Below are positions 1 through 6,085 of a stretch of 6,085 nt of DNA, piece after piece. Position 1 is the stretch's first letter. The number at the start of each line of letters is the position of its first letter. A model generated the notes under the pieces. The model was given only the letters and a program-made list of their open reading frames with translations, was not told the DNA's origin and ran no database searches. The stretch lies in the IMG/VR virus record IMGVR_UViG_3300022758_000031, positions 1 to 6,085 of that record, one strand, 5' to 3'. A program made the position numbers and the translations under genes. The DNA comes from a virus.

Positions 1-127
1 TATTTTATCACATTAACAATTGACGACAAATCATATAGCGAATTATCAAACACATATAATATTACAGATAACAACGAAATAGCAACAAAAGCAATTAGAT
101 TATGTTTAGAAAGAATCAGAAAACAAA
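1..127. repeat. Terminal redundancy (left copy) marking circular closure
   Basis: Checked base by base: identical to 5959-6085. Confidence 0.97.
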
Positions 128-801
128 CAAGTAAATCTATTAAACACTGGTTTATAACAGAATTAGGACACCAAAAAACAGAAAGATTGCATCTACACGG
201 AATAGTTTGGGGTATTGGAACTGACAAACTAATTACAGACAAATGGAATTACGGAATAACATTCACAGGTTTTTTCGTAAATGAAAAAACAATACAATAT
301 ATAACCAAATATATGACCAAAATCGATGAACAACACAAAGATTTCATAGGGAAAGTACTATGCTCCAAAGGAATAGGAAAAGGTTATACAGAGCGTACAG
401 ACGCAAACAAACATAAATATAAAAAAGGAGAAACAATAGAAACTTACAGATTAAGAAACGGAGCAAAAATAAATCTACCTGTGTATTATAGAAATCAATT
501 ATTTTCAGAGAAAGAAAGAGAACAATTATTTATTGACAAAATAGAAAAAGGAATCATTTATATATTAGGACAACCTGTACATAGGGATAACGAAAAATAT
601 TATCTACAAATATTAGAAGAAGGAAGAAAAACAGAGCGTAAACTATATGGATATAATTTACAAAATTGGGAACAGCAAAAATACTTATCAAGATTAAGGA
701 GACAAAAGAAAAAACAAGATAAAGAATTACAACAATTAGAAACATATTGGGCAATAAATCGTGCAAAAAAATATACATCATTAGATGAATGTCCATTTTA
801 A
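1..801 (+). CDS. VP4: Replication initiation protein (VP4-like), C-terminal part; the full protein is 332 aa on the circular map (5761 -> wrap -> 801)
   Basis: Frame 1 is open from base 1 (YFITLTIDD...). Motif 1 FITLTID is at 4-24, the HUH motif H-L-H at 190-198, and the paired catalytic tyrosines YITKYMTK at 298-321 (compare phiX174 A YVAKYVNK). Stop TAA at 799-801. The track's start at 187 is an internal TTG, not the real start. Confidence 0.93.
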   Translation, partial: YFITLTIDDKSYSELSNTYNITDNNEIATKAIRLCLERIRKQTSKSIKHWFITELGHQKTERLHLHGIVWGIGTDKLITDKWNYGITFTGFFVNEKTIQYITKYMTKIDEQHKDFIGKVLCSKGIGKGYTERTDANKHKYKKGETIETYRLRNGAKINLPVYYRNQLFSEKEREQLFIDKIEKGIIYILGQPVHRDNEKYYLQILEEGRKTERKLYGYNLQNWEQQKYLSRLRRQKKKQDKELQQLETYWAINRAKKYTSLDECPF

Positions 802-810
802 TAATTATAT

Positions 811-842
811 TTTGGGCGACCAGGCGGGCTATCCGGCCCAAA
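811..842 (+). repeat. Inverted repeat / hairpin just after the Rep stop
   Basis: TTTGGGC (811-817) pairs with GCCCAAA (836-842), a 7-bp stem with an 18-nt G/C-rich loop. No downstream T-run, so it is not a canonical intrinsic terminator. Confidence 0.6.
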
Positions 843-888
843 CATATCTCCGCTATGCTCCGATACTCGCCTACTATCCCTGTCGCAC

Positions 889-910
889 GCAACAAAGTTG
901 CTATTAATTT
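889..910 (+). promoter_or_regulatory. Candidate plus-strand origin / Rep nick site (phiX174 ori-core-like motif on a small hairpin)
   Basis: Hairpin GCAAC-AAA-GTTGC (889-901) is followed by TATTAATTT. Window 898-908 TTGCTATTAAT matches the phiX174 origin core TTGATATTAAT, which is nicked after the G, at 10 of 11 positions. Confidence 0.4.
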
Positions 911-995
911 GCGCTCCGCGCAGGTTTTAGGGGTATATAGGGAGGGATAGACAGCGATAAATTAAAGGACAGAATCCTTAAGGAACAGTTTTATA

Positions 996-1036
996 TAAGG
1001 GCGTGCACCCGGCAAAAGCCGTGGTGTGCGCCTTTA
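996..1036 (+). repeat. Long imperfect hairpin specific to the + strand
   Basis: Outer stem pairs 996-1009 with 1023-1036; inner stem pairs CGGC (1010-1013) with GCCG (1018-1021) around an AAAA loop. That gives 18 pairs with a single bulge (T1022). Three pairs are G-T/U wobbles (999-1033, 1004-1028, 1005-1027), which would be A-C mismatches on the - strand. Confidence 0.7.
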
Positions 1037-1046
1037 GCGATATCAA

Positions 1047-1088
1047 GGTGCTAGACGCTAAGGAGGGCTACGCGCCCTCTATTGCACC
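1047..1088 (+). repeat. Nested helix domain
   Basis: GGTGC (1047-1051) pairs with GCACC (1084-1088) and encloses the hairpin GAGGGC (1063-1068) / GCCCTC (1074-1079), which has a 5-nt loop. AGCG (1036-1039) can pair with CGCT (1094-1097) as an outer closing stem. Confidence 0.55.
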
Positions 1089-1102
1089 ATCAGCGCTCAA
1101 AC

Positions 1103-1145
1103 GGCGCGCATCCTTACTATGCAGTGTGTTAAATAAATGTTAAAG
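1103..1145 (+). promoter_or_regulatory. dif-like bipartite motif with tandem TGTTAAA half-sites (candidate Xer-type recombination site)
   Basis: GGCGCGCATCC (1103-1113) matches the E. coli dif XerC arm GGTGCGCATAA at 8/11. GTGTGTTAAAT (1124-1134) matches the XerD arm TTATGTTAAAT at 9/11. Order and orientation are the same as dif, but the spacer is 10 nt instead of 6. TGTTAAA recurs at 1138-1144, 11 nt after the first copy. Confidence 0.3.
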
Positions 1146-1157
1146 GTAACAAGAAAA

Positions 1158-1188
1158 TTTGCAGAATCAAAAAAAACACGCATATTTG
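1158..1188 (+). promoter_or_regulatory. Candidate Bacteroidetes-type promoter (-33 TTTG / -7 TAnnTTTG) for the small-ORF to VP1 operon
   Basis: TTTG at 1158-1161 and cAtaTTTG at 1181-1188 (7/8 to TAnnTTTG) are separated by 19 nt, about 29 nt upstream of the first ATG (1217). Confidence 0.4.
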
Positions 1189-1205
1189 TAGTGTAATAAA
1201 AAACT

Positions 1206-1211
1206 AGGAGG
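1206..1211 (+). promoter_or_regulatory. Shine-Dalgarno site for the 48-aa ORF
   Basis: AGGAGG lies 5 nt upstream of the ATG at 1217. Confidence 0.7.
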
Positions 1212-1216
1212 TAAAT

Positions 1217-1363
1217 ATGTTAATAACAAGAACAAAAGTGCGTGGATTCAAAGCAGTAACCAACAAAAATATACCAGCACGTATCGCAACAAGACACTAC
1301 TTCGCATATCAAGAAGTAGAAGGAAGAGAATTAAAAATAATAACAACAAAAAAAACTTTTTAA
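1217..1363 (+). CDS. Small, highly basic hypothetical protein (48 aa); possible J/VP8-like DNA-binding packaging protein
   Basis: Not in the ORF track. Hand translation: MLITRTKVRGFKAVTNKNIPARIATRHYFAYQEVEGRELKIITTKKTF, stop TAA at 1361-1363. It has a perfect AGGAGG RBS, 11 K/R against 3 D/E, and its stop lies 2 nt before the next ATG. Confidence 0.65.
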   Translation: MLITRTKVRGFKAVTNKNIPARIATRHYFAYQEVEGRELKIITTKKTF

Positions 1364-1365
1364 TT

Positions 1366-1587
1366 ATGGCAGCAACAAAATTTACAGCAATCTACGTAAA
1401 CAACGAAGGTAAAATCATCGAAAGAGAAATTCCAGGTATGAACACTTACAAAATAGCAGAAAAATTTGCTATAATATTAAACGAACCGGAAGAAACAAAA
1501 TTAGTAGGAGTAATAGAAACATGGAAAATGTATCCTAATAATTATGAAAAAACCAAAAAAGAAAACAATTTGGGTAGTGAAAAATAA
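1366..1587 (+). CDS. Hypothetical protein (73 aa)
   Basis: ATG lies 2 nt after the preceding stop. ORF on the phage coding strand. No family recognised. Confidence 0.6.
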   Translation: MAATKFTAIYVNNEGKIIEREIPGMNTYKIAEKFAIILNEPEETKLVGVIETWKMYPNNYEKTKKENNLGSEK

Positions 1588-1798
1588 AACATTTACTACA
1601 TTTAAGGCGTTCAAAACATATGCCTGGTTTAATATGATACCGGGAGAATGTACAAACGGGTTCGAAATATTCGAAGATACGGTAATTAAAGAATACAATT
1701 TAAATAGAAAAGAAAGGAGGTTAATAATAGAAAAAATTTATGACGAAGAAGAAGAAAAAATCAAAAAAATTAATATTCAACAACTTAAATTATTTTAA
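1544..1798 (+). CDS. Hypothetical protein (84 aa if it starts at 1544; start uncertain, alternative ATG at 1634)
   Basis: + strand ORF that overlaps the previous ORF by 44 nt in another frame. Lys-rich N-terminus (MKKPKKK) and acidic C-terminal half (DEEEEK). Its stop lies 1 nt before the next ATG. Confidence 0.5.
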   Translation: MKKPKKKTIWVVKNKTFTTFKAFKTYAWFNMIPGECTNGFEIFEDTVIKEYNLNRKERRLIIEKIYDEEEEKIKKINIQQLKLF

Positions 1799-1799
1799 A

Positions 1800-2003
1800 A
1801 TGAAAGTTACAGGTAATCAATGGATAGAAATTATCCGGGCAATCTCAACGGCAATTATAGCAGTAATCACAACGTTATATGTGCAAAGTTGTACAATGAG
1901 TTTGAGCGTAGCAAAAAACAACAACAACGCTAGTCAAAAAACCGAACAAACGTCAACTTCAAGTATTGACAGTACAAAAATTAGTATTAATCCTAAAATG
2001 TAA
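1800..2003 (+). CDS. Small membrane / lipoprotein-like protein (67 aa); candidate lysis or exclusion factor
   Basis: ATG at 1800 lies 1 nt after the upstream stop; the track's longer version starts at 1740 in the same frame. Sequence MKVTGNQWIEIIRAISTAIIAVITTLYVQSC... has a single hydrophobic helix ending in Cys31 (TGT 1890-1892), then a polar N/S/T/Q-rich tail. Confidence 0.6.
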   Translation: MKVTGNQWIEIIRAISTAIIAVITTLYVQSCTMSLSVAKNNNNASQKTEQTSTSSIDSTKISINPKM

Positions 2004-2009
2004 AAAATT

Positions 2010-2255
2010 ATGGCTAATCTTAAAGAAGCATTCGTAATCCGGCCAGCGGATACAGAAGAAAAAGAGTATATAATTACCATTGGTAACCATCTGGCAACAG
2101 AAGAAAAATTTAAATCAAGAGCAGCCGCTCAAAGAGAAATCAACAAAACAAACTGGAATCTGGTAAGTGCACTAGTATACGCACTTAAGGAAGCAGACCA
2201 GTGGGCGGAAAAAAACAAAGAATTATTAAACGAAAATAAAGAAACGGAGGAATAA
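2010..2255 (+). CDS. Hypothetical protein (81 aa), mildly acidic, immediately upstream of the capsid gene
   Basis: ATG lies 6 nt after the previous stop, and its own stop lies 1 nt before the VP1 ATG. By my count 16 D/E against 12 K/R. No family recognised. Confidence 0.6.
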   Translation: MANLKEAFVIRPADTEEKEYIITIGNHLATEEKFKSRAAAQREINKTNWNLVSALVYALKEADQWAEKNKELLNENKETEE

Positions 2256-2256
2256 T

Positions 2257-4215
2257 ATGAGTATTCAAAAAAACATTGGTAAAAATACCATAGGCGATAA
2301 TAAAAAAATGGAGGTAGACTTGAGAACCTATAACAGGTCAACTCATAACCTATCTACAATTGTAAGAAATACACAATCAGCCGGAACATTAGTGCCAACA
2401 TTGACACTAATAATGCAAAAAGATGACACATTTGAAATCAACATTGAATCAAGCGTATTAACACATCCGACAACCGGACCGTTATACGGATCGTTCAAAT
2501 TAGAAAATCACTTATTTTTCATACCATTCAGACTTTACAACAGTTGGCTACACAACAACAGGATAGGCATAGGCTTAAATATGAGCCAAATCAAATTACC
2601 ACAATTAAAAGTAAATCTAAAAAAATTTATGGACCAACCGGGTGAAGATAATCTACAATGGTCACAAGTAAACCCTAGTTGCCTATTATCATACCTAGGT
2701 ATTAAGGGTTACGGAGGTTTTAAAACAGGCGTAACAACAACAGTTGCAAGTAAAAATGCAGTAAAATTACTAGGATATTGGGATATATTCAAAAATTACT
2801 ATGCTAACAAACAAGAAAAAATAGCATATTTTATCGGAAGCAATGACCCAATAGAAGCAACTATTAACACAACTCCAGTAATAAACCCGAACAATATTAA
2901 TCAAGCGGAAGGTACAGTAAAAGTTAACGCGACAATTAAAATCAATGACCCAAGCAAAATTTATACAGAAAATAATGTAAAATTATGGATAACACAAAAA
3001 ATTGGACATTCACCGGTACAAATGACAGCGGGGGAAATAGGCTCAACAAATTGGGCAGAGAATAAATTTACCATAACACTAGACAGTATACCAACGGGGG
3101 AAACGTGGTGGATACGTTCAATACAATCAACAGAACAACAAGCACTAACAACATTCAGCCTAGACGAAATAGACAAAATGAGAGACGAAATACTAGCAAC
3201 AGCGGGAAACGTAACATACGAGCTAGCAGGAAATGAAAGCGAAGAAATAACTATGAAAAAAATGTTCGGTGAAAGAGGAATAAACCAAAAATTAAAAAGC
3301 ACAAGACCTCAATACGGACTACTATTAAGAACCTACAACAGCGACCTATACCAAAATTGGATAAACACCGAATGGATAGAAGGCGCAAACGGAATCAATG
3401 AAATATCATCCGTAGACGTAACAGATGGTAAACTATCAATAGACGCTCTAAATTTAGCGCAAAAAGTTTACAATATGTTAAATAGAATTGCAGTAAGCGG
3501 AGGAACATACAGGGACTGGCTAGAAACGGTATACGCAAGCGGAAAATACCTAGAGAGATGCGAAACACCTACATTCGAAGGAGGAACAAGTCAAGAAATT
3601 GTATTTCAAGAAGTAGTCAGTAACTCAGCGACAGAAGACGAACCGCTAGGAACGTTAGCAGGAAGAGGCATAAACGCTGGCAAACAAAAAGGCGGAAAAA
3701 TCAAAATCAGAGCAACAGAACCGGGCTACATAATGTCAATAACAAGCATTACACCTAGAATCGATTACAGCCAAGGAAATGATTTTGATACAGATTGGGA
3801 AACAATCGATGATATGCACAAACCAGCACTAGACGGTATAGGATACCAAGACAGCGTAAATACAGGGCGAGCATGGTGGGATGATACATACATAAATTCA
3901 GTAGGTACACTCCAAAAACATGCAGCAGGAAAAACAGTAGCCTGGATAGATTACATGACAAATGTAAATAGAACATACGGAAACTTTGCATCCGGCATGA
4001 GCGAGGCATTTATGGTGCTAAACAGAAACTACCAAATGAAAATAGGAACAGACGGAAATACACTGATAGATGATTTAACAACATACATCGACCCAGTAAA
4101 ATATAATTATATTTTCGCTGATACAAGTATCGACGCAATGAATTTCTGGGTGCAAATTAAATATGACATCACAGCGAGAAGATTAATGAGTGCAAAACAA
4201 ATTCCAAATTTATAA
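2257..4215 (+). CDS. VP1: Major capsid protein (Microviridae VP1 / F-like), 652 aa
   Basis: Largest ORF, with GGAGG 6 nt upstream. Block ...NRSTHNLSTIVRNTQSAGTLVPTLT...DTFEINIESSVLTHPTTGPLYGSFKLENHLFFIPFRLYN... matches the conserved N-terminal pattern of microvirus F/VP1 jelly-roll proteins as I recall it. Confidence 0.95.
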   Translation: MSIQKNIGKNTIGDNKKMEVDLRTYNRSTHNLSTIVRNTQSAGTLVPTLTLIMQKDDTFEINIESSVLTHPTTGPLYGSFKLENHLFFIPFRLYNSWLHNNRIGIGLNMSQIKLPQLKVNLKKFMDQPGEDNLQWSQVNPSCLLSYLGIKGYGGFKTGVTTTVASKNAVKLLGYWDIFKNYYANKQEKIAYFIGSNDPIEATINTTPVINPNNINQAEGTVKVNATIKINDPSKIYTENNVKLWITQKIGHSPVQMTAGEIGSTNWAENKFTITLDSIPTGETWWIRSIQSTEQQALTTFSLDEIDKMRDEILATAGNVTYELAGNESEEITMKKMFGERGINQKLKSTRPQYGLLLRTYNSDLYQNWINTEWIEGANGINEISSVDVTDGKLSIDALNLAQKVYNMLNRIAVSGGTYRDWLETVYASGKYLERCETPTFEGGTSQEIVFQEVVSNSATEDEPLGTLAGRGINAGKQKGGKIKIRATEPGYIMSITSITPRIDYSQGNDFDTDWETIDDMHKPALDGIGYQDSVNTGRAWWDDTYINSVGTLQKHAAGKTVAWIDYMTNVNRTYGNFASGMSEAFMVLNRNYQMKIGTDGNTLIDDLTTYIDPVKYNYIFADTSIDAMNFWVQIKYDITARRLMSAKQIPNL

Positions 4216-4218
4216 ACC

Positions 4219-4527
4219 ATGAAATACGGAAAAATAAAAACAACATCAGGAAGGTTACAAAGCGTAGAAATCTACGAAGGAGAAACCATAGAACAAAAAG
4301 TAAACAGAATCGTGAACAATAACGAACCGATTACAGACGGTGCGCCAATTATATTCACAGAGCGTAAAGATGGAGTATTACCAGAATATGACATACGTAC
4401 AGACAGATGGGACATCGCCATTACAGCAATGGATAAAGTAAATACTGATAGAATCGCGAGACGTGAAAATAAAGTAGACGTAAAAGACGTGCCAGAAAAA
4501 AAAGACGGATCACCAAGCGAAAACTAA
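4219..4527 (+). CDS. Hypothetical protein (102 aa); possibly an internal scaffolding (VP3-like) protein
   Basis: ATG lies 3 nt after the VP1 stop, on the coding strand. The scaffold idea rests only on position and a loose resemblance of PEYDIRTDRWDIAITAMD to gokushovirus VP3 motifs. Confidence 0.7.
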   Translation: MKYGKIKTTSGRLQSVEIYEGETIEQKVNRIVNNNEPITDGAPIIFTERKDGVLPEYDIRTDRWDIAITAMDKVNTDRIARRENKVDVKDVPEKKDGSPSEN

Positions 4528-4646
4528 TAGGCAAAGCCTAGTCACTGTACGCGAAACGCTACATGACTTTTGTAAAAAGTAATGTATGTCAGTACGCGTA
4601 CAGTATATTATATCAAGTATATAGTAAGACGCTTTTAAAAAAAGCG
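4528..4646 (+). repeat. Second noncoding region with nested and competing inverted repeats
   Basis: TAGGC-AAA-GCCTA (4528-4540). ACTGTACGCG (4544-4553) is the exact reverse complement of CGCGTACAGT (4595-4604). Palindrome GTACGCGTAC (4592-4601). Hairpin CGCTTTT (4630-4636) / AAAAGCG (4640-4646). Confidence 0.7.
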
Positions 4647-4675
4647 CGAAAAATGTAAATTAAAATTGAAAGAAT

Positions 4676-5761
4676 ATGTTAGGAGGAATAATAGCAGCAG
4701 CAACTTCAGCAATTGGAAGCCAAATTAAAGGAATCGAGGCAAGAGATGCAGAAGATAGAGCTTATACCAAACAAAAAGAGCTAATGCAAGACCAATACGA
4801 TTATAATAACAAGATGGCAGAAGAAAATCAAAGAAGAGACAAGGAAATGTGGAACTATACAAACTTTGAAAACCAAAAACAACACCTATTAAATGCAAAT
4901 TTATCACCCGGGCTATTTTACGGTGGAGGTGGAGCAGGCGGAGCATCTACAAGCGGAGGTCAAGGACAAGGCATAGGACTAGGAAGTGAAACAGGAGTAG
5001 GATATAGAATCCAAGAAAAAGCACTAGGACTACAACTAGCAAACACAGTATCTCAAATCGCATTAAATGAAAGCCAGGCTAACAAAAACAATGCAGAAGC
5101 CGAAAAAATTGCAGGAGCAGACACCAAAGTAGCCGAAAAAGAAGCGGAAATGTTAGAATCTCAAAGCGAATTTAATAAAAGAATTACCAAGTTACAAGAC
5201 AGTATCGAAAAACTGACAAATGCACAAGAGCAAAAAACAGCCGCAGAATATTTTTATATTCAAGCACAGGAGAAGAAGGTATGGGAAGAAGTACGGGAAC
5301 AAGTTGTAAAAGCCGACGTAGCGGAAAAAACAAAAGAAGCCATGATACGTAAAACAACCCTAGAAAACTTTAACCTCATACAATCAGGTATTGAATCAAT
5401 AACAAGACAAAAGCTTAACAGTGAACAAATAAATTACCTTAAAGGTCAAATTGCAATAGGTTGGGCCAACGTAGCAATAGGTGAAAAATCAGTAGCAAAC
5501 GAAAGCGACAGAATCGCCAACGAGCTGATGATAGGAATGAGAGACCTAGACAGAAAAGACCGTGAACTTATCAAAAATTGGATATATGAAGGAATCCACG
5601 CAGGAAAAGAAATAAGCGGTGAAATCCTCAATTGGTTAATGAAAGGTGCACCTAAAACAATAGCGGAAGTAACCGGAAGAATTGAAGAAATGTTTGATAG
5701 CGAAGGAAAACAAATCGGATCAAAAACAATACAACAAACCGTAACAAAAACAGCAGAATAA
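4676..5761 (+). CDS. VP2: Minor capsid / DNA pilot protein (Microviridae VP2, phiX174 H-like), 361 aa
   Basis: Small-residue hydrophobic N-terminus MLGGIIAAATSAIGSQIKG. Gly-rich tract YGGGGAGGASTSGGQGQGIGLGS (about 4921-4990). Long E/K/Q/A-rich helical region. Position between capsid and Rep fits pilot-protein architecture. Confidence 0.82.
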   Translation: MLGGIIAAATSAIGSQIKGIEARDAEDRAYTKQKELMQDQYDYNNKMAEENQRRDKEMWNYTNFENQKQHLLNANLSPGLFYGGGGAGGASTSGGQGQGIGLGSETGVGYRIQEKALGLQLANTVSQIALNESQANKNNAEAEKIAGADTKVAEKEAEMLESQSEFNKRITKLQDSIEKLTNAQEQKTAAEYFYIQAQEKKVWEEVREQVVKADVAEKTKEAMIRKTTLENFNLIQSGIESITRQKLNSEQINYLKGQIAIGWANVAIGEKSVANESDRIANELMIGMRDLDRKDRELIKNWIYEGIHAGKEISGEILNWLMKGAPKTIAEVTGRIEEMFDSEGKQIGSKTIQQTVTKTAE

Positions 5762-6085
5762 TGTGCCTATATCCAAAACTCATAAAAAACAGGCGGTATG
5801 TACCAAATAAAAAGAATGGAGGCGTACCGCCTCAATGTCCGGACGAAAGACTACTATACGTAACCGCGGCATGTGGCAAATGTATGGAATGCAGAAAACA
5901 AATACAAAGACAATGGCTAGTTAGAATGAGTGAAGAATTAAGACAAGAACCAAACGCGTATTTTATCACATTAACAATTGACGACAAATCATATAGCGAA
6001 TTATCAAACACATATAATATTACAGATAACAACGAAATAGCAACAAAAGCAATTAGATTATGTTTAGAAAGAATCAGAAAACAAA
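5761..6085 (+). CDS. VP4: Replication initiation protein (Microviridae VP4 / phiX174 A-like HUH endonuclease), N-terminal part, running off the window end and continuing at position 128
   Basis: ATG at 5761 overlaps the VP2 stop (TAATG). My translation is MCLYPKLIKNRRYVPNKKNGGVPPQCPDERLLYVTAACGKCMECRKQIQRQWLVRMSEELRQEPNAYFITLTIDD..., with no stop to the window end. The MC..P start and CGKCxxCR Cys cluster are typical of microvirus Rep. The ORF track omits it because it has no stop inside the window. Confidence 0.92.
   Translation, partial: MCLYPKLIKNRRYVPNKKNGGVPPQCPDERLLYVTAACGKCMECRKQIQRQWLVRMSEELRQEPNAYFITLTIDDKSYSELSNTYNITDNNEIATKAIRLCLERIRKQ
5959..6085. repeat. Terminal redundancy (right copy) marking circular closure
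   Basis: Checked base by base: identical to 1-127. The Rep reading frame stays in phase across the junction. Confidence 0.97.

Follow-up and report, generated by a model that had tools for sequence, protein, structure and literature searches.

Two exchanged hairpin cassettes, oriented by strand composition, as candidate complementary-strand origins in gut microvirus genomes

In the gut, microviruses belong to the most abundant phages, and we know of no microvirus replication signal that has been defined beyond the coliphages. In phiX174 an intergenic hairpin on the packaged strand, the n' (PriA) site, starts complementary-strand synthesis. 'Extraordinarily stable' DNA mini-hairpins of the GCGNAGC type occur at the origins of G4 (GCGAAAGC), of St-1 and alpha3 (GCGTTAGC) and at ssiA of RSF1010 (PMC13037366). 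In the G4 record we located GCGAAAGC within the annotated primer region, on the packaged strand. The single-strand origins (sso) of plasmids are host-limiting folded cassettes of ~160 nt of single-stranded DNA (ssDNA), fixed in orientation but flexible in position relative to rep, which move between replicons with different Reps (PMC5703833). For the reekeekee- and roodoodoo-microviruses a conserved intergenic stem-loop with compensatory substitutions has been reported, and the authors discuss a negative-strand initiation site (PMC9865509). Here we analyse a GC-rich non-coding island at positions 811-1125 of a 6,085-nt stretch of viral DNA (positions 1 to 6,085 of the IMG/VR record IMGVR_UViG_3300022758_000031, hereafter the window), a circular microvirus genome that carries every gene on its plus strand. 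The island consists of two conserved cassettes which, with moderate confidence, we regard as probable complementary-strand origins of the sso/ssi-like kind, acting on the packaged strand, here the strand antisense to the genes.

With 52.1 % G+C against 34.5 % in the rest of the genome (35.3 % overall), the island is as GC-rich as a first, sequence-only reading of the window had stated. It lies in the non-coding gap 802-1216, delimited from the list of open reading frames (ORFs) and base composition, which extends from the stop codon of the replication gene (Rep, ending at 801) to the first small ORF at 1217 and comprises the island and an AT-rich promoter region (1126-1216), the latter also A-rich on the plus strand. 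The gap measures 415 nt, or 7.0 % of the 5958-nt circle, in line with the ~7 % estimated in that reading. Its view that no real gene is present was likewise borne out, since the ORFs of the gap are short (40, 53 and 46 aa, all on the plus strand) and matched no Pfam family, and no frame is conserved; an intact frame in relatives would have spoken for a gene, however only 4 of 40 homologues of the 3' cassette (module B) have any frame free of stops across it. For the 5' cassette (module A) a coding role was considered and rejected, because several frames are open together in this GC-rich stretch and its homologues are separated by indels of 1 nt and 11 nt.

In a 150-nt scan of predicted ssDNA folding, segments of the island reached -29 to -32 kcal/mol, ~4 standard deviations below the genome mean (-8.5 to -9.9 kcal/mol, standard deviation ~5), making it the most stable fold of the genome. 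The second non-coding region, NCR2 (4528-4675), came next with -26 to -27 kcal/mol, and these two are the sole strongly folded parts of the ssDNA. Against shuffled sequences the whole island gave minimum free energy (MFE) z-scores of -2.40 on the plus and -2.33 on the minus strand; the effect is modest, weaker than the sequence-only reading implied, and does not separate the strands. Comparing the MFE of the two strands homologue by homologue, with RNA and DNA parameters, was tried as a test of strand and rejected because the outcome (plus favoured for module B, minus for module A) merely follows G content.

Distant blastn searches against GenBank phages resolved the island into a mosaic of module A (811-925) and module B (928-1113). 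Module A has 55.8 % GC, its functional strand being presumably the minus strand, and copies with ~84 % identity to it occur in bajarodmic virus 65, Tortoise microvirus 1/97 and others, even though Rep and the major capsid protein (MCP) of bajarodmic virus 65 and Tortoise microvirus 1 are just 21-28 % identical to those of the window. Its invariant core, TCCCTGNCGCACGCAAC on the plus strand (877-893), served as a pattern that retrieved 17 microvirus copies from IMG/VR. Two hairpins follow, both assigned to the minus strand. The first (GCAAC-AAA-GTTGC, 889-901) is kept in 18 of 18 copies with a variable loop, and in contig L012 it shows a C.A on plus that is a T.G on minus. The second (TGCGC-TCC-GCGCA, 910-922) reads GCGGAGC on the minus strand, an exact GCGNAGC DNA mini-hairpin that is found in module A on that strand only, and in the T-rich lineage it carries a compensatory change of C-G to T-A (TGCGT-TTC-ACGCA). 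The minus strand of module A also contains TAtgTTTG without a -33 element. In lineage 2 (L001 3620-3800; also L186, L187, L197 and others) the purine-rich strand has a hairpin and T-run, GGGAAAATACTTTTCCCTTTT, after module A, beyond which lies an inverted repeat of ~25 bp that is AT-rich.

Module B (~185 nt, ~50 % GC, again with minus as the presumed functional strand) recurs in Dulem virus 245 and many others, and pattern scans recovered more than 100 copies, all true ones in microvirus contigs of ~6 kb. Its elements, which we likewise assign to the minus strand, follow each other from 5' to 3' on plus as a 5' motif, stem PA enclosing hairpin V, hairpin M, a core, hairpin C and hairpin T. The 5' motif (GGGGTATATAGGGAGGG on plus, 930-946) has nearly invariant columns and possible long-range or pseudoknot pairings; covariation support for a long-range helix, P1, and for the helices of the 5' domain is weak. 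Stem PA (GTGCACC/GGTGTGC) surrounds the variable hairpin V (CGGC-AAAA-GCCG) at 1003-1029, and here pairs 10/35, 11/34, 15/29 and 16/28 covary, with four Watson-Crick types at 16/28. Mini-hairpin M, of 3 bp (GCC-TTT-AGC on plus, 1030-1038), reads C-GNA-G on the minus strand of relatives; its pair 40/47 occurs in four Watson-Crick types, and the C.A that the window has on plus is T.G on minus.

The core of module B is a conserved single-stranded stretch of 25 nt (1039-1063), GATATCAAGGTGCTAGACGCTAAGG on plus and CCTTAGCGTCTAGCACCTTGATATC on minus, of which the GTGCTAGNCGCTAAGG part is invariant in 85 sequences while the GATATCAAGG part varies. It is followed by hairpin C (GAGGGC-TACGC-GCCCTC on plus, 1063-1079), with GCGTAGC at its minus-strand apex and covariation in 6 of 8 pairs, and by hairpin T (GCGC-TCAAACG-GCGC on plus, 1093-1107), where pair 106/122 is GC in 42 copies, CG in 41 and UA in 2, and pair 109/119 is UA in 63 and CG in 21. 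Across 85 distinct homologues of module B, both partners have changed in 15 of 25 pairs (310 cells) and 96.4 % of cells are paired, a level attained by none of 500 shuffles, and controls in which the pairing was slid collapsed. By this comparison the hairpins of module B are a real, selected structure, and the stem-loops that had been drawn from one genome are confirmed. In lineage 3 (L002 2350-2460; L008, L029) another conserved structured segment, CACTGTCACTTATC...GATAAGTG around GGGTTTTCGG...CCGAAAACCC, lies upstream of module B in the same strand orientation and may be a third type of cassette.

More than 110 genomes in at least three deep lineages carry these cassettes, which are 75-90 % identical among microviruses whose Rep and MCP share only 20-28 % identity; within the window's lineage the two proteins are 49-89 % identical. 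Outside the cassettes, genomes that share module A or B gave no DNA-level alignment in the searches of GenBank phages. In contig L036 of lineage 3, module B is 88-89 % identical to lineage-1 copies and 67 % to that of L002 from its own lineage, whereas its MCP is 20 % identical to that of L031 (lineage 1) and 62 % to that of L002. The cassette tree is in conflict with the protein tree, and the sequence comparison indicates at least three independent crossings between lineages, all concordant in orientation. The cassettes lie after Rep, after MCP or after the pilot gene depending on the lineage, with one copy per genome at a place that is fixed within the lineage, and contigs with two copies are concatemers. 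In the literature searched we found no description of such cassettes or of microviruses with antisense packaging. The isolated Bacteroides fragilis microvirus phiHBP1 is no direct model, because neither module is present in it and it belongs to the conventional T-rich type (69 %).

The horizontal acquisition suggested earlier by the change in composition is therefore supported as exchange, but the source would be other microviruses and not the host. Among 185,579 bacterial and archaeal species genomes (one per species), the invariant core had 58 exact matches, all attributable to chance and without flanking homology, and distant blastn found no homologue in the 72,556 plasmids of PLSDB. Two metagenome contigs join module B to bacterial DNA, however they look like chimeric assemblies because the junctions cut through the phage Rep or pilot gene. 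Four chimeric contigs could pass for prophage junctions. In L256 the join is to bacterial genes, one glmM-like and one flavodoxin-like, and in L240 the partner is a GC-rich segment of bacterial-like character, whereas L213 consists of an inverted duplication and L229 has the look of an inverted join.

The orientation of the cassettes follows the composition of the DNA strands, which was measured at four-fold degenerate sites of the coding strand. In the window these sites (long ORFs 2257-4215, 4676-5761 and Rep) are 67 % A, 13 % T, 11 % C and 9 % G, the mirror image of phiX174 (59 % T, 9 % A) and of T-rich gut microviruses. Taking IMG/VR and GenBank together, module B lies in sense in 31 genomes including the window, with 59-67 % A and 11-18 % T, and antisense in 14 genomes with 56-74 % T and 11-16 % A; module A lies in sense in 5 A-rich and antisense in 12 T-rich genomes. 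The 53 metagenome contigs with module B divide into 27 that are sense and A-rich and 26 that are antisense and T-rich. Six more GenBank genomes with partial matches obey the rule, two of higher GC content showing it as an asymmetry of purines versus pyrimidines, and the apparent exceptions (L213, L256, L240 and L229) are the inverted-duplication or bacterial-junction chimeras. In bajarodmic virus 65 and Dulem virus 245 the cassettes are antisense to all genes and are sited after MCP or directly after the pilot gene.

The version of either cassette found on the window's plus strand is thus always on the purine-rich strand, which is coding here and non-coding in the T-rich lineages. In this comparative test, covering more than 110 genomes without a genuine exception, cassette orientation is independent of gene direction and tied to strand composition. 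Since translational selection in similar hosts cannot produce mirrored synonymous biases, the bias is a property of the DNA strand.

The calibration of composition against packaging comes from coliphages, in which the packaged strand is the coding strand and is T-rich at four-fold sites, as in phiX174 and, less markedly, G4 (46 % T, 17 % A). In general, ssDNA phages over-use NNT codons, for which C-to-T changes in exposed ssDNA have been held responsible (PMC3278643). The loops of module B point to the same strand as this skew. On minus, loop M is GNA in 76 of 85 copies (GAA 53, GGA 22, GTA 1). Loop C opens with G and closes with A in 83 of these copies, and the G...A form is also that of loop T in 84 of them; among the 85 cores, exact GCGN(1-2)AGC mini-hairpins number 76 on the minus strand and none on plus. 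In 58 genomes the phiX-like nick motif AACTTGATAT, allowing at most one mismatch, had 53 occurrences on the pyrimidine-rich strand against 3 on the opposite one, a count that strand composition does not bias because the A and T contents of the motif are equal. Wobble intermediates at covarying positions are mostly A.C on plus, that is G.T on minus (43 cells at 8 positions); G.T on plus is limited to 3 cells at 2 positions.

Synonymous-site skew, cassette orientation and the nick motif are three independent markers of strand that vary together. From the skew calibration, loop chemistry and nick motif we infer that the T-rich strand is the packaged one, and the minus strand is likely to be the active form of the cassettes. 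The sequence-only reading had taken plus as the packaged strand and had described wobble pairs that work on plus only. Composition, loop motifs and nick motif all speak for minus instead, and most wobble intermediates do too, although an invariant tandem T.G/G.T and some weak 5' pairs favour plus.

Under the reading that we favour, the packaged strand would enter the cell as ssDNA, and most of it would be too pyrimidine-skewed to fold and so become coated by single-stranded DNA-binding protein (SSB). The GC-balanced island would fold into very stable hairpins with GNA or G...A loops, parted by the invariant unpaired CCTTAGCGNCTAGCAC, and resist SSB. A host primase or RNA polymerase could then read the hairpin cluster together with CCTTAGCGNCTAGCAC and lay a primer, by which the ssDNA would be converted to the replicative form. 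We propose that the cassettes are movable among microviruses with unrelated Reps because host factors, and not Rep, read the signal, and transfer would be tolerated only in the orientation that places the cassette on the packaged strand. Priming of complementary-strand synthesis was one of three functions put forward in the sequence-only reading, and it is the best supported of them (the element is strand-locked, position-flexible, exchanged and rich in mini-hairpins); the strand on which it was placed has to be revised, as the evidence favours minus.

A consequence is that the replication module, consisting of the NCR2 nick site and the island, would be inverted relative to the gene block, and that this lineage would package a 'negative-sense' genome, a T-rich virion strand complementary to all mRNAs. 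On the sequence evidence we hold this to be moderately probable. Besides the window, the proposed negative-sense lineage counts at least 55 related gut genomes; its Rep has ~330-380 aa and its MCP ~620-680 aa, and to our knowledge every characterised member of the Microviridae differs from such antisense packaging.

Several points weigh against this interpretation. The priming function is assigned by analogy, and the rule that T-rich means packaged is extrapolated from coliphages. Although the orientation rule covers many genomes, these may represent only 3-4 independent events. A G-to-A mutation bias of the plus strand could be enough to produce the excess of A.C intermediates. The invariant tandem T.G/G.T in stem PA and the pair G72.T92 form on plus only, and plus is likewise favoured by changes on one side of the pairs in the 5' domain and the P1 helix, both of them weakly supported. 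Hairpin V has GGA or GAA loops on plus in 12 of 40 copies, and a generic census of loops in non-coding hairpins was modest in its contrast, with 18 on the pyrimidine-rich and 8 on the purine-rich strand. By blastn with word size 7, positions 801-1130 matched neither G4 nor phiX174 at E<=1, and the ssoA RSB consensus TTATGCCGAGAAAATTT had no match in the window at up to 3 mismatches.

Some of these observations would be accommodated if module B, or the whole island, were a structured RNA made from the purine-rich strand, either as a non-coding RNA or as a long structured primer RNA copied from the packaged strand, comparable to ColE1 RNA II. Covariation of riboswitch grade with long invariant unpaired stretches, the invariant tandem G.U/U.G and the G.U closing pairs available on plus only, and the one-sided changes of G.U to A-U and G-C in P1 and the 5' domain would all suit an RNA; in the window, moreover, the island is in mRNA sense 3' of Rep, and as RNA the plus strand folds ~9 kcal/mol better in 35 of 40 copies. 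That advantage, however, follows G content and reverses for module A, and the plus-strand loops are of U..C types (UUC, UACGC) which are unusual for RNA and whose complements are classic DNA mini-hairpins. A scan of the whole window with Rfam 15 on both strands gave no match at E<=1, and ARAGORN found no tRNA or tmRNA.

In the T-rich lineages, the same module runs opposite to all genes and directly adjoins the stop codon of the pilot gene, so an RNA would require antisense transcription. By eye, no Bacteroidetes-type promoter that could drive it was convincing, and no terminator with a U-tract was seen 3' of module B; an independent RNA gene would have no cause to track strand composition across at least three transfers. 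The structured RNA or leader offered as a second function in the sequence-only reading is therefore not supported, because orientation tracks strand composition and not transcription, and we consider an RNA of either kind unlikely.

A viral-strand origin in module B is about equally doubtful. In this model Rep would nick the minus strand within the core, CCTTG|ATATC, which the flanking hairpins would expose when the replicative form is supercoiled. On minus the core indeed contains CTTGATAT, an 8/8 match to the nick region of phiX174 (CAACTTG|ATAT) that lends a viral-strand role some probability, an origin of this kind would likewise lock orientation to the packaged strand, and in L002-type genomes of lineage 3 the core holds the sole non-coding copy of CTTGATA. 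The sub-motif nevertheless varies among relatives (GATATCAAGG, GATACTATGG, GATACTAAGG, GATGCTAAGG and others), the invariant part being GTGCTAGNCGCTAAGG, and a single cassette serves lineages with barely alignable Reps (~24 % identity over 141 aa). NCR2 of lineage 1 offers an invariant and better match (TAYTACTTGATAT and an AT-rich tract), and two origins of the same sense would split the genome.

We regard NCR2 as the better candidate for the Rep-dependent viral-strand origin. Its putative nick site (4610-4619, minus strand) reads TACTTGATAT, compared with AACTTG|ATAT in phiX174, and lies in the minus-strand stretch TATACTTGATATAAT; throughout the lineage-1 genomes examined, to which the window belongs, the motif lies outside genes and does not vary, reading TA(Y)TACTTGATAT on the minus strand of NCR2 with an AT-rich tract after it. 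A hairpin adjoins it (GACGC-TTTTAAAAAAA-GCGCG region, 4628-4648, assigned to minus), which covaries in an alignment of 28 NCR2 copies from CGCGC/GCG to CGAGC/GCTC and to CGATGA/ATCG. NCR2, whose minus strand carries the phiX174-origin-like motif TATACTTGATATAATATAC, has counterparts of 88-94 % identity in Tortoise microvirus 13 and Dulem virus 218. Lineage 2 has a non-coding motif of the same type, TAACTTGATAA, on the coding (T-rich) strand as in phiX. All lineage-3 genomes (L002 at ~4934) have ATCTTGATAT on the coding (T-rich) strand within the MCP gene, invariant among variable flanking synonymous sites, which may be an intragenic origin like that of phiX174 or simply codon bias (N-L-D-I).

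It is considerably less probable that the cassettes are selfish, non-autonomous mobile elements (MITE or IS200/IS605-PATE-like) which insert into ssDNA in a strand-specific way and serve no phage function. Such transposition would also lock orientation, the cassettes are bounded by hairpins, and their intergenic position varies between lineages as described. Within each lineage, however, the single copy has a fixed place, no terminal inverted repeats or target duplications were seen at the junctions read, the species genomes and PLSDB hold no copy, and no parent element or transposase partner is visible. The internal hairpins are furthermore under strong purifying selection with compensatory change.

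Still more improbable is a transcription terminator or insulator at the end of a polycistronic unit, just upstream of the main promoter. The island does stand after the last gene or between gene blocks, depending on the lineage, adjoins the promoter in lineages 1 and 3, and has GC-rich hairpins, with a hairpin and T-run after module A in lineage 2. A terminator must run with the genes, however, and the element is inverted relative to them in the T-rich lineages while its strand-specific features are kept; no U-tract follows the module B hairpins in either orientation, and ~185 nt with a 25-nt invariant unpaired core far exceed the need. The least probable explanation, a host-derived attachment (attP or dif-like) region for XerCD-type integration of the kind proposed for prophages of Bacteroidales microviruses, is in keeping with the proposal that related gut microviruses integrate at dif-like sites (PMC3091885) and with the two bacterial-junction contigs, but both of these break within Rep or pilot and one abuts GC-rich sequence that is not Bacteroidales-like, the species genomes have no true match to the core, no intact prophages of this lineage with direct repeats mapping in 811-1125 were found, and an att site needs ~13-28 bp and not two covarying hairpin cassettes.

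The remainder of the window is organised as follows. A terminal direct overlap of 127 nt (1-127 identical to 5959-6085) closes the circle of 5958 nt. On the plus strand, Rep (Pfam PF23343) extends from 5761 across the junction to 801, small ORFs occupy 1217-2255, MCP (Pfam PF02305) 2257-4215, a 102-aa ORF 4219-4527 and a pilot-like protein 4676-5761. Bacteroidetes promoters have the consensus TTTG/TAnnTTTG, and a pattern scan located a promoter of this type for the gene block, TTTG-N19-cAtaTTTG, at 1158-1188 on plus, just 3' of the island; it is kept in same-lineage relatives. Downstream of it a strong Shine-Dalgarno sequence, AGGAGG (1206-1211), stands 5 nt before the ATG at 1217, strong sites of this kind being unusual in Bacteroidetes hosts. 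Part of the small-ORF block (1334-1998) is 77 % identical at the DNA level to GenBank PV067927, a human gut Microviridae sp., which in DNA searches gave no other alignment to the window except part of the island.

These results provide testable candidates for the complementary-strand origins of Bacteroidales-type microviruses, namely the two cassettes, and for a Rep nick site (4610-4619). Non-coding, origin-like cassettes cross microvirus lineages with almost no protein identity, as plasmid sso do, and the combination of orientation, synonymous skew and nick motif would give a means of telling, from sequence only, the packaged strand of a metagenomic ssDNA phage. If antisense packaging is true, the usual assumption that the virion strand of a microvirus carries its genes, which the sequence-only reading shared, would no longer hold, and an unrecognised genome polarity would be revealed in a large lineage of gut microviruses, with a bearing on annotation, on virome methods that take account of strand and on how synthetic phage vectors for Bacteroides are designed.

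Compared with known systems, the reekeekee- and roodoodoo-microvirus hairpins are single and confined to one clade, whereas multi-hairpin cassettes spread across deep lineages and an orientation rule are found here. The n' site of phiX174 is a single hairpin of ~55 nt read by PriA, unlike the island, which has no similarity to phiX174. The viral origin of phiX174 (CAACTTG|ATATTAATAAC) shares its core, ACTTGATAT, with the window's minus strand in NCR2 (4610-4619), where an AT-rich tract follows, and has a partial copy, CTTGATAT, in module B that varies among relatives; the NCR2 motif differs in being non-coding and not within the Rep gene, antisense to the genes and without the 3' 'key' sequence.

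The oric of G4, St-1, alpha3 and phiK resembles the island as a non-coding, GC-rich hairpin cluster between microvirus genes. In G4 it is likewise the top ssDNA fold (3851-4000: -31.9 kcal/mol against a mean of -13.1, GC 58 % vs 46 %), and both have mini-hairpins of the GCGNAGC/GCGNNAGC type on the T-rich strand, which is packaged in G4 and, as we infer, also here. The island differs in being about twice as large, in having two separable cassettes that are exchanged across deep lineages, in the strand being antisense to the genes, and in its hosts, which judged from the promoter type are gut Bacteroidales-type. It is found in a phage and not in a plasmid, unlike the sso; as with ssoA, ssoU, ssoT and ssoW, however, the cassettes are strand-locked, flexible in position and exchanged between replicons with different Reps. 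On the minus strand the core invariantly has TAGCGT or TAGCGA (TAGCGT in the window, reverse complement of 1055-1060), the former being the CS-6 sequence of ssoA; in ssoA, CS-6 occupies the terminal loop of the main hairpin, whereas here the sequence lies between hairpins C and M. The origins of G4 and M13 and the plasmid sso follow the same logic as that proposed for the island, in which one place on the strand folds and resists SSB.

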